Assembly (NCBI GenBank): GCA_028716045.1
Contig: JAQUQO010000001.1
Coordinates: 192,942-256,941 of the forward strand
Source: Patescibacteria group bacterium
Lineage (GTDB): Bacteria; Patescibacteriota; Patescibacteriia; JAQUQO01
Length of the DNA: 64,000 bases
Direction: 5' to 3'
In this document: piece after piece, positions 9,209 through 50,415 of the stretch
How the letters are laid out: the number at the start of each line of letters is the position of its first letter
Numbering within the stretch: the stretch's first letter is position 1
The notes under the pieces: model-generated
The model's database searches: none
What the model was told of the DNA's origin: nothing
The model's input: only the letters and a program-made list of their open reading frames with translations
Made by a program: the position numbers and the translations under genes

Positions 9209-9268
9209 AATTAGTTGGTTCAATCTTAAAGATTGAACCAACTACTGTAATTTAGCTGTAATTTTAAA

Positions 9269-23247: not shown

Positions 23248-23315
23248 ATGACTGGTCGGGCGAAATTTAAGCCGGGGGTTGATTATAGCGTCTAAAATGA
23301 CGCTTTTTTAAATCG

Positions 23316-23400
23316 CTTGACCCGTTGGTCGCGACCGATGGGTCTTGACCAGTCAGTCGCGACTGACTGGTCTTGACAGATTTTTAGGGTTTGTTATAAT
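23316..23400 (+). promoter_or_regulatory. Hairpin-promoter module, copy C. Tandem double hairpin (23319-23344 and 23347-23372) sharing TTGAC units, then TTGACA-16-TATAAT.
   Basis: First hairpin preserved by two G-T wobble pairs on the + strand. Second hairpin perfect. -10 at 23395-23400. Confidence 0.6.
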
Positions 23401-37703: not shown

Positions 37704-38381
37704 ATGGCAGGAGGGGATAAAAAGTTTAATCGCCAGTCGATTCGTTTAAAAAATTATGATTATAGTGAATCGGGATATTATTTCGTAACGATTTGCGTAC
37801 AAGGTAGTAAATGTTTATTTGGCGAGGTGGTTAATGGTGAGGTGATATTAAATAGTATTGGCGAAATGATTAAAAAATGGTGGCTGGAATTAGAAAATAA
37901 ATTTTTCCGCGTTGAATTAGATAAATTTATTGTAATGCCGAACCATTTTCATGGAATAATAAATATAACCATAGGGATTGTAGGGGCAGACCTGCGTGTC
38001 TGCTCTAATCTTAAAAAGGGCGAACACGTAGGTTCGCCCCTACACAATCGCGAACACGTAGGTTCGCCCCTACACAATCGCGAACACGTAGGTTCGCCCC
38101 TACACAATCGCGAACACGTAGGTTCGCCCCTACATGATATTGTAAAATGGTTTAAAACAATGACGACGAATGAATATATTAAAAATGTTAAACAAGGCGG
38201 TTGGCCGCCATTCGATCGGAGATTATGGCAGCGCAATTATTGGGAGCACGTAATCCGTACCGAAAAATCATTAAATAATATTCGTGAATATATACTGAGC
38301 AATCCCGAAAATTGGAGTGGCGAAGCGGAGGATTTTAATGTATTTGTGGGTAAATTTATTGTTAAATCCGCCGCTTTATGA
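37704..38381 (+). CDS. REP-associated tyrosine transposase (RAYT / IS200-like TnpA_REP) with an in-frame repeat insertion
   Basis: YYFVTICVQG ... MPNHFHGII (HuH) ... RNYWEHV (catalytic Tyr). Decapeptide HVGSPLHNRE repeated about 4 times. Confidence 0.8.
   Translation: MAGGDKKFNRQSIRLKNYDYSESGYYFVTICVQGSKCLFGEVVNGEVILNSIGEMIKKWWLELENKFFRVELDKFIVMPNHFHGIINITIGIVGADLRVCSNLKKGEHVGSPLHNREHVGSPLHNREHVGSPLHNREHVGSPLHDIVKWFKTMTTNEYIKNVKQGGWPPFDRRLWQRNYWEHVIRTEKSLNNIREYILSNPENWSGEAEDFNVFVGKFIVKSAAL
38021..38140 (+). repeat. 3.8 tandem copies of a 30-bp unit (cgaacacgtaggttcgcccctacacaatcg), each containing hairpin gcgaac-acGTAG-gttcgc, embedded in-frame in the RAYT gene
   Basis: Read directly; unit length 30 = 10 codons. 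Confidence 0.9.
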
Positions 38382-45478: not shown

Positions 45479-45551
45479 GCCGTTGTAGCTCAGTTGGTAG
45501 AGCAACTCCATGGTAAGGAGTAGGTCCGCGGTTCAAGCCCGCGCAACGGCT
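45479..45551 (+). tRNA. tRNA-Thr (anticodon GGU)
   Basis: Hand-folded cloverleaf: acceptor gccgttg/caacggc, anticodon loop aTGGTaa, T-loop ttcaagc. Confidence 0.75.
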
Positions 45552-45653
45552 CAGAGGCCTTTTTAAAAAATATTTTGTAGGTGCGATACCGCTGTCGCAC
45601 CTCTGTTTTAAGATAAAAGAGCGACAGTTTTGCCTGCCCGCCAGTCGCTAAGT

Positions 45654-45726
45654 GCCGAGGTAGCTCAGCTGGTAGAGCAGCAGTTTTGTAAACTGCGGGT
45701 CGCAGGTTCGAATCCTGTCCTCGGCT
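45654..45726 (+). tRNA. tRNA-Thr (anticodon UGU)
   Basis: Acceptor gccgagg/cctcggc, anticodon loop ttTGTaa, T-loop ttcgaat. Confidence 0.75.
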
Positions 45727-45759
45727 CTGGTTCAGTAAGTAAATCAATTGCTCCTTTTC

Positions 45760-45830
45760 GGTTTCCGCCAAAGGCGGACCCGGTCGGATGACCGGGCGAA
45801 TCCGACGGGTGGCTTCAGATTATTAATTAA
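45760..45830 (+). repeat. GC-rich nested hairpins (ccgccaaaggcgg; gacccggtcggatgaccgggcgaatccgacgggtgg) resembling an expanded version of the GTCGCGAC-core hairpin arms
   Basis: Arms gacccggtcgg / ccgacgggtgg read directly. Confidence 0.4.
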
Positions 45831-45840
45831 TTTTATTTTT

Positions 45841-45996
45841 ATGTCACAAGACAATCTCATTAAATTAGAATGCTCGGAATGCAAAAGGGTTACCCATTTT
45901 TCTAAGAAAAATAAAAAAACACTTAGAGAGCGTTTAGCGATGAAAAAATATTGCCGACATTGCAAAAAACACACACCGCATAAGGAAACAAAATAG
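45841..45996 (+). CDS. rpmG: 50S ribosomal protein L33
   Basis: MSQDNLIKLECSECKRVTHFSKKNKKTLRERLAMKKYCRHCKKHTPHKETK. CxxC...CxxC and KNxxxxPxRLELKKYC pattern of L33. Confidence 0.85.
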   Translation: MSQDNLIKLECSECKRVTHFSKKNKKTLRERLAMKKYCRHCKKHTPHKETK

Positions 45997-46026
45997 TCGA
46001 TGACTATAAGCCGATAGCTTATAGTT

Positions 46027-46097
46027 CTCGGGGGGTTCGTATAATGGTAGTACAGGGGTCTCACCCGTCAGTCGCGACTGACGGGTGTCTCCAAAAC
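46027..46097 (+). pseudogene. Partial 5' copy of tRNA-Trp (acceptor through anticodon loop) with a 25-bp GTCGCGAC-core hairpin (46063-46087) inserted in the anticodon loop
   Basis: ctcggggggttcgtataatggtagtacaggggtctc + acccgtcagtcgcgactgacgggtg + tctccaaaac; the flanking tc(tc) is duplicated. Confidence 0.6.
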
Positions 46098-46101
46098 TTT
46101 T

Positions 46102-46353
46102 ATGTATTATATTTATATTCTACATATAGAAGGGATTAAGGGTAAAAATTTTTATATTGGTTATACTGCGGATTTGAAAAATAGACTTAAGGAACATTTA
46201 CTAGGGAGAGTTAGAACAACCAGAGGTAGAAACCCAAAATTAATTTATTTTGAAGCTTATGGTGGTAAATATCTAGCTTTAAAAAGAGAAAAAGGTTTAA
46301 AAAATAGTGGTTCCGTTTATAATGCCTTGTTGAGACGTTTAAGTTTAAAATAA
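46102..46353 (+). CDS. Small GIY-YIG nuclease-superfamily protein (YhbQ/UPF0213-like)
   Basis: YYIYILH..GIKGKNFYIGYTADLKNRLKEH..G.....RGR.P.L.Y.E......AL..E..LK matches the YhbQ-type GIY-YIG pattern. Confidence 0.7.
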   Translation: MYYIYILHIEGIKGKNFYIGYTADLKNRLKEHLLGRVRTTRGRNPKLIYFEAYGGKYLALKREKGLKNSGSVYNALLRRLSLK

Positions 46354-46359
46354 AAACTC

Positions 46360-46433
46360 GGGGGGTTCGTATAATGGTAGTACAGGGGTCTCCAAAACCT
46401 CTAGCGTGGGTTCGATTCCTACACCCCCTGCCA
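46360..46433 (+). tRNA. tRNA-Trp (anticodon CCA), 3' CCA encoded
   Basis: Acceptor ggggggt/accccct (G1-U72), anticodon loop ctCCAaa, T-loop ttcgatt. Confidence 0.75.
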
Positions 46434-46448
46434 GAATTAATTAAAAGT

Positions 46449-46658
46449 ATGAATCGAGAAAATATTAATTCAAGCCCAGAACAAAAGAAAGAGTTAAGGA
46501 GGTATGTTTACACGGACCATAAGATTGAAAAGGTTATTTTTGAATGTGAAGCCGGGGATATTCTAGAAGCCGATGAGTTGTATAAAAAAGCCACTGGCAA
46601 TGATTCAAGTAAGCAAGCTTACGTTGGCATTCAGATTTTGGAAATAAAGAAAGAATAA
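46449..46658 (+). CDS. Hypothetical small protein (69 aa)
   Basis: ORF starting just after the tRNA; the track ORF 46374 would overlap the tRNA, so the later start was chosen. Confidence 0.4.
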   Translation: MNRENINSSPEQKKELRRYVYTDHKIEKVIFECEAGDILEADELYKKATGNDSSKQAYVGIQILEIKKE

Positions 46659-46708
46659 GAATTCGTTTTCCGGGCGTTTTTTAATATAGTTGAGTAAATT
46701 TTTTAAAT

Positions 46709-47656
46709 ATGTTCAAATCAACATTTGAAAAGCCCGCCAAGGGGGAGAAGCGACAGGAAAAATTTGCGGAGTTGATTAAGAATATCGCGGCGGAGACAAA
46801 TGAATATCTCAATCGCTTTATTGAAGACGAAAGGGGTAAAAATATCGTCGGGGAAGACGGGCATATTGAGATGCGTTCTTTTTGGACAAAAAAGGGCGGA
46901 CCGTTTGCTAAAACCGGAGAGGGGAGCGTAAGCGAAGACGAAGATTTTGTCTTAGAGCGCCGAAAAATTTTCAGCGGAATTTGGAATGATGACGGTAAGG
47001 AAGATAAAAACATTAAAGATTATTACCGCGATACTTTTAATTGTGGCACCGAAGAGGAAATGGTGAAACAGTGGAGCAAGAATCAGGAAAAAAGCTACGG
47101 GGCGTTGTTGGAAAAGGCGCTTTTGAGTATTTTATATAAGGCCCTGCGCAAGGATTTCATTGTGGTTCATTCCTCGGTTTACGACGATTATGCCAACGGC
47201 GTGGATTACGTGATTGTCAATAAAGAAACGGGCGATGTGGCTTGCGCTTTTGACGGGGTTAATGACGATAAGGGAGGGGAGAGATTTGAGAAAAAAATAA
47301 AAAAAATCAGGGATAAATCAAAAAAAGACGGAGCGGTATTGAAATACGGAATTACTTTTGAAAAATCTGATGGTGGGAAGAAGCTGGTTAAAAAGGAACT
47401 AAGCGGCATTCCGGTTTTTTGTCTGTCAATTTCCCGCGACGAACTGGATAAATTATTGGGCAAGATGAATTATGATTTATCCGGCGGTTTATCAGATGAG
47501 GAGGCAGAAGTTTTCGGTAATTTGATTGAATTGTTAAAATCGCAGACGGCGGATTTGGAACATGCCGGTTTATCGGAAAAAGTAAAAGATAATCTGGCGA
47601 AGTTTAAAATTTCTTTGGCTAAAATGGAGGAGTCAGCTGCGAAAAAGAGAAATTAA
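46709..47656 (+). CDS. Hypothetical Lys/Glu-rich protein (315 aa)
   Basis: ORF; no family recognised. Confidence 0.5.
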   Translation: MFKSTFEKPAKGEKRQEKFAELIKNIAAETNEYLNRFIEDERGKNIVGEDGHIEMRSFWTKKGGPFAKTGEGSVSEDEDFVLERRKIFSGIWNDDGKEDKNIKDYYRDTFNCGTEEEMVKQWSKNQEKSYGALLEKALLSILYKALRKDFIVVHSSVYDDYANGVDYVIVNKETGDVACAFDGVNDDKGGERFEKKIKKIRDKSKKDGAVLKYGITFEKSDGGKKLVKKELSGIPVFCLSISRDELDKLLGKMNYDLSGGLSDEEAEVFGNLIELLKSQTADLEHAGLSEKVKDNLAKFKISLAKMEESAAKKRN

Positions 47657-47798
47657 TTTTAGTATTATGAAAATAATTTTTTATTTAAATAGCGTTTTTT
47701 GAATATTAATAATCTAACCAACAGAGGGCAAAACAATGAGTGATGAAAGAGAAAAGAAAGGGCAAAATGGCTAGGAAAAACCGCCGGTAAGCGGAATC

Positions 47799-47984
47799 GT
47801 GATTGTGTATGGTTCCGATAGCAACGGCAATCCGCTTGGCAGCGATGAAGCCAAAAAGATACAAGGAATTCTTAATATACCAGAGGTGGCAGCAAAGATA
47901 TTTGTTTCCGATGAAGAGTACGAAAAAGAGTTGGATAAAAAATTTCGTAGGAAATTTCTGCCAAAAAATAACCAAACGGAATAA
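47799..47984 (+). CDS. Possible small protein (GTG start, 61 aa)
   Basis: ORF only. Confidence 0.25.
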   Translation: MIVYGSDSNGNPLGSDEAKKIQGILNIPEVAAKIFVSDEEYEKELDKKFRRKFLPKNNQTE

Positions 47985-48147
47985 ATCCATTGCCCAAAAC
48001 GGGGAGCATAACATTGCTTTCCGTTTTTTATTTTCCAGAAGATATTTTAGATGGCGAGAAACACCCTTGACTTATTATCCTTTTGGAGCTATTGTTAGAT
48101 TATATGAAATCATTTTTAAGATTAAAAAAATTAATAACAATAATAAT

Positions 48148-48212
48148 CCCGCCGGCGGATGGTAGTTTTGATTTGTCTTTTACCACCCGCCATTAAACCG
48201 GCGGGTTTTTTG
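48148..48212 (+). terminator. Extended hairpin terminator (cccgccgg ... ccggcggg then TTTTTT)
   Basis: Read directly. Confidence 0.55.
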
Positions 48213-48219
48213 TTTATAT

Positions 48220-48294
48220 TCTGGGGTAGTTTAACGGTAAAACGCTGCACTGTTAATGCAGTTAGTGGAGGTTCGACTCCTCCCCCCAGAGCCA
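48220..48294 (+). tRNA. tRNA-Asn (anticodon GUU), 3' CCA encoded
   Basis: Acceptor tctgggg/ccccaga, anticodon loop ctGTTaa, T-loop ttcgact. Confidence 0.7.
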
Positions 48295-49624: not shown

Positions 49625-50356
49625 ATGAGTAATACCTTGAAGCCGTCGAAAGATAAGCGAGAAATTCTTGAAGAAATAAAAAGATTTCAGGCGCCGATGG
49701 AGCCGTTCACCAGCCAGGCCAGCTGGAAGATTTTTAAAATTATGGCCGAGTTTATTGAGGGGTTTGAATTTTTATCAAAACTAAAAAAAGAGGTGACGTT
49801 CTTCGGTTCGGCCAGAGTGACGGAATTTGATGAGGATTACAAAGACGCCCGCCAGCTGGCCTATAAATTAGGCAAGGCGGGATTCGCGATAATTACTGGC
49901 GGCGGGCCGGGCGTGATGGAAGCGGCTAACAGAGGGGCTTCCGAAGCCGGCGCCAATTCCATAGGCCTGAATATCCAGTTGCCGACAGAGCAGAGAATTA
50001 ATAAATACGTGAAAAGAGGAACAGGTTTTTATTATTTTTTTACCCGCAAAGTAATGCTTTCAATGTCCGCTCGCGCTTACATCTATTTTCCTGGCGGTTT
50101 TGGCACTTTGGATGAATTTTTGGAAATCATCACTTTAATTCAAACAAGAAAAGCGCCGCCGTTGCCAGTGGTGCTGATGGGCAAAGAATATTGGGAACCG
50201 TTTACAAAATTTATTAATGATACGGTTTATAGAAAATTTGGCGCCATAGAGAAAGCGGATATGGACATTTTTTATCTGGCGAAAAATGTTGATGACGCCT
50301 ATCATTATATTTTGAAAAATTCCAAACCAAGAAAGTTTTTTACGACTAGAGATTAA
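49625..50356 (+). CDS. LOG-family (TIGR00730) phosphoribohydrolase/Rossmann-fold protein
   Basis: TGGGPGVMEAANRGA ... FPGGFGTLDEF motifs. Confidence 0.8.
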   Translation: MSNTLKPSKDKREILEEIKRFQAPMEPFTSQASWKIFKIMAEFIEGFEFLSKLKKEVTFFGSARVTEFDEDYKDARQLAYKLGKAGFAIITGGGPGVMEAANRGASEAGANSIGLNIQLPTEQRINKYVKRGTGFYYFFTRKVMLSMSARAYIYFPGGFGTLDEFLEIITLIQTRKAPPLPVVLMGKEYWEPFTKFINDTVYRKFGAIEKADMDIFYLAKNVDDAYHYILKNSKPRKFFTTRD

Positions 50357-50380: not shown

Positions 50381-50415
50381 GTGGGCGAGAATCCGAATTC
50401 TCGCCCACGTGTTTT
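50381..50415 (+). terminator. Terminator hairpin gggcgagaat-ccga-attctcgccc then a T-run (family shared with 50995-51022)
   Basis: Read directly. Confidence 0.6.

Follow-up and report, generated by a model that had tools for sequence, protein, structure and literature searches.

The open reading frame (ORF) at 37704–38381 of a 64-kb window from a Patescibacteria group bacterium (assembly GCA_028716045.1, contig JAQUQO010000001.1, positions 192,942 to 256,941; the window is this whole stretch, and coordinates are counted from its first letter) very probably encodes a domesticated TnpA_REP transposase, or RAYT (REP-associated tyrosine transposase; REP, repetitive extragenic palindromic sequence), of subclass 2.4, in which an inverted pair of cognate REPs codes for a loop that is predicted to be disordered. 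An earlier note on this DNA had proposed that REP sequences are kept in frame inside the gene, and this was borne out: the ORF is intact despite five in-frame, GTAG-footed hairpin units at 37980–38135. The note had also regarded the arrangement as unusual. However, Quentin, Siguier, Chandler and Fichant, who divided the TnpA_Y1 proteins into subclasses (BMC Genomics 19:475, 2018; PMC6006769), described in-frame REPs within tnpA_REP genes, generally between HuH and the Y motif, as a striking trait that only subclass 2.4 has, which is RAYT group 4 of Bertels et al. 2017 and has the motifs NH[IFV]H, WQ and YIxNNP. In-frame REPs at this place are thus a published hallmark, of which the window gene provides one more case; the phenomenon itself was already known. 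We are much less confident about how the array of units arose than about what the gene is. The gene and its protein motifs are as follows.

37704..38381, plus strand: tnpA_REP/RAYT-like gene, TnpA_Y1 subclass 2.4-like, 225 aa, ATG start (from the ORF list)
37941..37952, plus strand: HuH motif N80-H81-F82-H83, aligning with PEHMH (H59/H61) of Escherichia coli TnpA_REP and fitting NH[IFV]H
38226..38258, plus strand: W175-Q176...E181-H182...R185 (LWQRNYWEHVIR), aligned to residues 94–104 of 4ER8
38289..38306, plus strand: catalytic Tyr motif Y196-I-L-S-N200-P201 (REYILSNP), aligning with D-Y115-IYI-N119-P of E. coli

The earlier assignment to RAYT-type HUH/Y1 proteins held for both sequence and fold. 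The protein scored above threshold with Pfam Y1_Tnp (PF01797; 25.2 bits against a gathering threshold of 23), and its best match in the PDB, by sequence and by fold, was 4ER8, TnpA_REP bound to a REP hairpin. Foldseek against the PDB placed 4er8_A first (E = 7.6e-6), followed by 29 chains of IS608/ISDra2/IS200-type TnpA, and identity to E. coli TnpA_REP was about 16% over the Foldseek alignment. The NCBIfam model for IS200 (NF033573) reached 15.9 bits against a cutoff of 55. Matches to Basigin in the PDB sequence search were weak (E about 0.5–0.8) and driven by the repeat, and were dismissed.

Alignment to the E. coli enzyme located the active-site residues. The HuH motif had been called correctly by the earlier note; it sits on strand 81–88 and is unchanged throughout 40 homologues. 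The Tyr motif had been placed in RNYWEHV, whose tyrosine aligns with F98 of E. coli TnpA_REP, whereas the counterpart of Y115 is Y196. In the E. coli protein Y115 is catalytic and N119 has a role too (Messing et al. 2012); Y196, I197 and N200 are invariant in the 40-homologue alignment. The motif has the class 2 signature Y---NP, with one departure from the subclass consensus YIxNNP (S for N). Between the HuH and Tyr motifs, W175, Q176, E181, H182 and R185 match E. coli W94, Q95, E100, H101 and R104 one-to-one, the residues assigned to recognition of the GTAG guide (Quentin et al. 2018, PMC6006769). None of the catalytic or guide-recognition residues is missing, so that, judging from its sequence, the enzyme probably works.

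AlphaFold, supplied with 40 homologues, modelled the core with confidence (pLDDT, the predicted local distance difference test, 89–98). The model runs from strand 81–88 through a coil without secondary structure (89–141) to a helix (142–164), and pLDDT falls below 50 over most of 93–138. The insertion is thus predicted to form a disordered loop between the HuH strand and a long helix. Both this model and the homologue alignment place the repeat between the HuH and Tyr motifs, where the earlier note had expected it. The elements that encode the loop are as follows.

37980..38005, plus strand: left (forward) REP unit GTAG-GGGCAGAC-CTGCGT-GTCTGCTC, read as VGADLRVCS, found by the foot-plus-hairpin scan
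38006..38015, no strand: AT-rich spacer TAATCTTAAA, separating the left unit from the first 30-bp unit
38016..38045, minus strand: right (inverted) REP unit 1, GTAG-GGGCGAAC-CTACGT-GTTCGCCC, foot at 38043, 8-bp stem, plus-strand peptide KGEHVGSPLH
38046..38075, minus strand: right REP unit 2, foot at 38073, 6-bp stem, plus-strand peptide NREHVGSPLH
38076..38105, minus strand: right REP unit 3, same sequence as unit 2, foot at 38103, NREHVGSPLH
38106..38135, minus strand: right REP unit 4, foot at 38133, NREHVGSPLH

The strongest tandem array in the window was reported by Tandem Repeats Finder at 38020–38134 (period 30, 3.8 copies, 100% matches, score 230), in line with the 30-bp unit repeated about 3.8 times that the earlier note had read from the letters. 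In codon phase this makes four complete 30-bp units (38016–38135) that differ at three edge bases only: unit 1 differs from units 2 and 3 at two bases (GG versus TC), and unit 4 at its last base. The 18-bp hairpin GCGAACACGTAGGTTCGC, for which a search had been suggested, occurred four times in the window, against 0 expected from 100 shuffles, and nowhere else in it at three mismatches. A scan of the 64 kb for REP architecture, taken as a perfect stem of 6 bp or more preceded by a 5' GT[AG]G foot, returned exactly five related units, one on the plus strand and four on the minus strand, each with a GTAG foot directly before a hairpin with a G:C pair at its bottom. The four tandem units of the earlier note therefore stand as a REP array, to which the forward unit at 37980–38005, overlooked there, has to be added. 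The note had taken the GTAG in the hairpin loops for the tetranucleotide that RAYTs recognise. Classical REPs have their GTAG 5' of the hairpin foot (Messing et al. 2012), and here this family-defining GTAG is the minus-strand 5' foot at 38043, 38073, 38103 and 38133; with a foot on the opposite strand of every unit, we rejected the loop GTAG as incidental.

The left unit and the array form an inverted REP pair with GTAG feet pointing outward. The left unit is of the GCAGAC type, with a 3' arm GTCTGC and a slightly decayed 3' end (homologues have VGADLRVCP at the equivalent place), while the minus-strand 3' arm of the right units is GTTCGC(CC). An inverted repeat with 28-nt arms (37979–38006 and 38017–38044, 79% complementary, 10-nt gap) joins the left unit to the first right unit, and both the minimum-free-energy and the centroid folds pair these two into a long hairpin like that of a REPIN (REP doublet forming a hairpin), the spacer being its loop. 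The region folds far more stably than shuffled sequences as DNA (-39.5 kcal/mol, z = -5.6) and as RNA (-79.8 kcal/mol, z = -8.3). The REP segment is also a GC island, with a GC content of 0.548 against 0.342 in the rest of the gene and 0.413 in the window.

Homologous genes carry the same pair at the same place. A protein search found 5608 relatives at E <= 1e-5 in many phyla, of which the best 120 were inspected; 80 genomic loci were fetched from named genomes, and the gene and GTAG-footed units were located in 73. Nearly all of the best 120 have VGADLRVCP...G-x-H-x-G-x-P-L between the HuH motif and QWFKTMTTNEY, and they range from 179 to 393 aa in length, with either half expanded in many. 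The insertion spans 26–219 aa among 112 homologues (median 60.5; 62 in the window protein), and 68 of these repeat a 5-aa word within it. Complete right-arm peptides number one in 73 of the 112, two in 30 and three or more in 6; the four right-hand copies of the window gene belong to the upper tail and are not unique. Among the 73 loci, both arms were present in 47, one in 16 and none in 10. Where both arms have the strict foot GTAGGGG (44 loci), every plus unit stands before every minus unit in all 44. Of 50 left units, 48 share a single reading phase. The right units are split between two phases (25 versus 34), so that one and the same DNA element yields peptides with no relation to each other (...GSPL or ...APT).

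The stems covary among these homologues. Selected by their foot alone, 90 of 109 units form perfect 8-bp stems, with at least 15 different complementary cores. The covariation alignment was limited to GTAGGGG-foot units in the 6-nt-loop register, a mild structure-informed choice; the count of 90 of 109 pairing at 8/8 was obtained without that filter. Over 46 distinct units, 97.3% of stem cells pair, compared with 82.2 ± 1.1% in shuffles (reached in 0 of 500), and pairing drops to at most 55% when the 3' partner is slid out of register. Five of the eight stem pairs show changes on both sides (67 cells versus 21.8 expected). Because the stems covary, the peptides change as stem complementarity requires (E/S, A/A, K/L, T/V, G/P, R/L). 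At the level of sequence, this shows selection on the hairpin and not on the peptide.

Related units were found outside the gene in 27 of the 73 homologous loci, mostly within 1 kb. External and internal units match exactly in 13 of the 73, and in 22 they differ at no more than 2 of 26 bases; the internal units therefore belong to their genome's own REP family. The exact 24-mer of the window is present on at least 120 metagenomic contigs, where 94 of its 135 occurrences lie somewhere other than in a RAYT right arm, and many copies adjoin a GCAGAC-type unit in inverted orientation.

We further noticed that extragenic copies of this REP at metagenome loci (L097, L100, L132, L149, L180) are often preceded by two to four tandem half-unit stutters (GGGCGAACAC plus 4–8 nt). 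The same stutter pattern is found inside many homologous genes, where it gives peptides of the type GEHxxGEHxxGEHIGSPL. This suggests that the half-unit stutters reflect a directional, hairpin-associated duplication process. At another locus (L157) the extragenic REP itself is present in full tandem copies with a period of 36. Stutters and tandem copies at extragenic REPs indicate that tandem amplification belongs to the element, not to the gene.

The mechanism that we favour begins with a single forward unit of the GCAGAC type and, after it, oppositely oriented units of the GCGAAC type, which would encode a loop at the surface, between the HuH strand and the helix after it. Local amplification would then have brought the right unit and its short linker to four copies, head to tail. 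The most likely route would be replication slippage promoted by the hairpin, or unequal recombination; cleavage and joining of single-stranded DNA by the enzyme itself would be a less likely one. Only lengths that keep the frame would survive, which would account for the period of 30 bp, or 10 codons. The extra 30 residues would be tolerated because the loop is predicted to be disordered, peripheral and dispensable; it is absent from some homologues, such as the 10 of 73 genes with neither arm. Identical linkers, the exact 30-bp period and the similar stutters at extragenic copies argue for local amplification, and the identity of the copies for a probably recent one.

Alternatively, the four units could each have arrived by a separate event of self-targeted REP transposition, with no local amplification, which was also among the ideas of the earlier note. 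This enzyme class is thought to mobilise REPs, which do land in frame in coding regions (Di Nocera et al. 2013, PMC3733652); Quentin et al. 2018 (PMC6006769) describe internal REPs as insertions, and extragenic REPs of exactly the same sequence exist in other organisms. However, units 2–4 are identical including the linker and lie exactly 30 bp apart, the 64 kb offer no donor copy, and the constant site and orientation of the pair across phyla point to one homologous site followed by local expansion. We therefore consider separate insertions distinctly unlikely as the origin of the array. It is also improbable that the array or its copy number is an assembly artefact. The source is a metagenome-assembled genome (MAG), copies that are 100% identical can be miscounted by short-read assemblers, and a metagenome scan for the same lineage, with a 29-nt lineage-specific flank, gave 0 matches. 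Yet the identical 225-aa protein is on record from two long contigs at NCBI (812 and 928 kb, not necessarily independent assemblies), the array is only 120 bp long and can be spanned by single reads, homologues from many independent assemblies have 2 to 9 or more right-arm copies, and at least one right unit would be expected at this site anyway.

Two further alternatives concern what the repeat is for. The decapeptide might be a selected protein feature, such as a linker or a binding repeat, with the palindromic DNA as a by-product. V-G-A-D...V and G...P-L are invariant in the 40-sequence alignment, as conserved as the catalytic residues. Covarying stems, with residue pairs that change as complementarity demands, are not what a selected peptide would leave, nor are one DNA unit read in two frames as unrelated peptides, a segment that is predicted to be disordered and is lacking in ten homologous genes, or identical units outside genes. 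Such a feature, unrelated to REPs, had been named in the earlier note as what would overturn its reading, and we regard it as highly improbable. The array might instead act mainly as RNA, controlling translation or stability of the transposase mRNA or allowing autoregulation through binding of the protein to its own message. The fold as RNA is highly stable, effects of REPs on the stability and translation of mRNAs are known, and the left unit lies in sense orientation with its GUAG foot in the mRNA. However, the same units are kept outside genes on either strand, as DNA elements, and the family enzyme binds single-stranded DNA (Messing et al. 2012). We give a mainly RNA-level function a low probability, although it could coexist with a subclass 2.4 gene that encodes its loop in cognate REPs.

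Several observations weigh against that identification of the gene and its repeats. No related unit was found outside the RAYT ORF in the window, which covers only about 7–8% of the genome, and as the 64 kb contain zero extragenic copies, no population of REPs that the enzyme could serve is visible. The gene also lacks the classical REPtron arrangement, with no REP within ±1000 nt of it. Here, the row of housekeeping genes into which the RAYT gene is wedged leaves no intergenic room for flanking REPs, and among the 26 two-armed homologues flanked on either side by 3 kb or more, 19 also have no related external unit. The best NCBIfam model, the equivalog REP_Tyr_transpos (NF047646), gave only 58.4 bits against a cutoff of 80, its match being split in two by the insertion. 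As for the array, the observations do not discriminate between slippage and enzyme-mediated amplification, and the number of copies is that of a MAG assembly.

By sequence, the window gene agrees with subclass 2.4 in everything tested except flanking REPs. It shares the HuH, WQ and Y---NP motifs, a variable insertion between beta3 and alphaC, in-frame REPs with a GTAG foot and a G:C bottom pair, and short DNA repeats that account for length heterogeneity; Quentin et al. modelled the loop as a peripheral extension (PMC6006769). Further criteria for the subclass are an 8-residue insertion where alphaB ends and few gene copies per genome. Most members of the subclass have REPs within ±1000 nt (PMC6006769), whereas the window gene has no flanking REPs and none elsewhere in the 64 kb. 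Its host also belongs to the Patescibacteria (candidate phyla radiation, CPR), which are not among the phyla in the summary table of Quentin et al. Compared with the criteria for REPs, REPINs and BIMEs (bacterial interspersed mosaic elements), we found the foot with an imperfect palindrome and the inverted pair, but no dispersed copies in the same genome within the 64 kb. The characteristic peptides (GADLRVCP, GEHIGSPL and others) had no match in a full-text literature search.

Other known systems resemble the window gene in part. E. coli TnpA_REP (YafM; subclass 2.2; 4ER8, Messing et al. 2012), with its REPtron and BIMEs, has the same fold and catalytic residues, and its REPs have a 5' GTAG foot and an imperfect hairpin and come in two inverted subtypes, often in tandem clusters. 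These REPs are, however, extragenic and flank the gene, and the corresponding loop of the protein is short (PEGDDDFS). Rickettsia palindromic elements and intragenic GTAG/CGTC REPs (Di Nocera et al. 2013, PMC3733652) are likewise palindromes translated within apparently functional proteins, as single units, dimers or clusters that encode tens of residues. They are scattered over many genes and sites, while in the RAYT genes site and orientation are fixed in one family, and the subclass 2.4 host gene encodes the enzyme believed to act on the repeat. TnpA proteins of IS200/IS605 elements (IS608, ISDra2) share the HUH/Y1 fold and recognise subterminal hairpins with a 5' guide tetranucleotide. Those elements are multicopy and mobile, with hairpins at their ends and a Y---Q motif, in contrast to the Y---NP motif of the window gene, which has no flanking hairpins.

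The tnpA_REP gene is present in a single copy within the window, and the host genome is roughly 0.8–0.9 Mb. It is packed between a glycosyltransferase gene and a gene for a DNA polymerase III delta'-like protein. The glycosyltransferase gene upstream ends 7 nt short of the RAYT start, and downstream the last 44 nt or so of the RAYT gene are shared with the delta'-like gene as its start is annotated (38338–38381; gene call in L081). The surrounding row consists of genes for a DUF4012 protein, MreB, the glycosyltransferase, the holB-like protein, a BNR-repeat protein and ribosome recycling factor.

We also noted other palindromes and features. Two tandem 28-bp units at 23316–23377 (context 23300–23400) each start with CTTGAC and contain a 24-nt palindrome (ACCCGTTGGTCGCGACCGATGGGT, then ACCAGTCAGTCGCGACTGACTGGT), the arms of which differ between the copies in a compensating way. 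They are followed by a third CTTGAC and a TATAAT box, just upstream of a ribosomal protein L10 leader (Rfam RF00557, 23416–23543), and may be a pair of operator or terminator hairpins before the rplJ promoter. A perfect 28-nt palindrome at 50381–50408 (GTGGGCGAGAATCCGAATTCTCGCCCAC), flanked by A and T runs and lying directly after an ORF that ends at 50356, looks like a bidirectional intrinsic terminator; it was caught by the GT[AG]G hairpin scan and rejected as unrelated to the REP units. The AT-rich hairpin at 9215–9245, with a perfect 12-bp stem and a 3-nt loop (TTGGTTCAATCT-TAA-AGATTGAACCAA) and a minus-strand GTAG before it, is probably a terminator unrelated to the REP family. Four ordinary tRNA genes (Thr-GGT, Thr-TGT, Trp-CCA, Asn-GTT) lie on the plus strand at 45479–48294. 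Among the homologues, P0018 and P0042, which have many VGADLRVCP repeats, carry a precomputed PF26602 tag. Our Pfam scan of these two proteins did not reproduce it and returned Y1_Tnp alone; PF26602 may be a family built on translated REP repeats.

The family-wide results leave the basic published picture unchanged. The internal REPs, published as 'insertions', are described more precisely by the fixed site and orientation, the covariation, the two reading frames and the frequent lack of external copies. We suggest, tentatively and as a rather unlikely extension, that the nested pair is an ancestral, maintained component, a REPIN within its own transposase gene, and that the gene is acted on by its own product. 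If this were true, enzyme and substrate would stay genetically linked, and the pair could persist without an extragenic REP population, for instance in a Patescibacterium with a genome of roughly 0.9 Mb. The gene would then be a substrate of its own product, with in-frame variation in copy number as the result. For the questions of how REPs spread and why domesticated RAYTs are retained, a RAYT with no visible cognate hairpins except those within its own coding sequence offers a compact natural test case, in a streamlined genome with no REPs nearby: the protein lends itself to study in vitro with both of its hairpin types, and variation in the copy number of the array could report activity in vivo.

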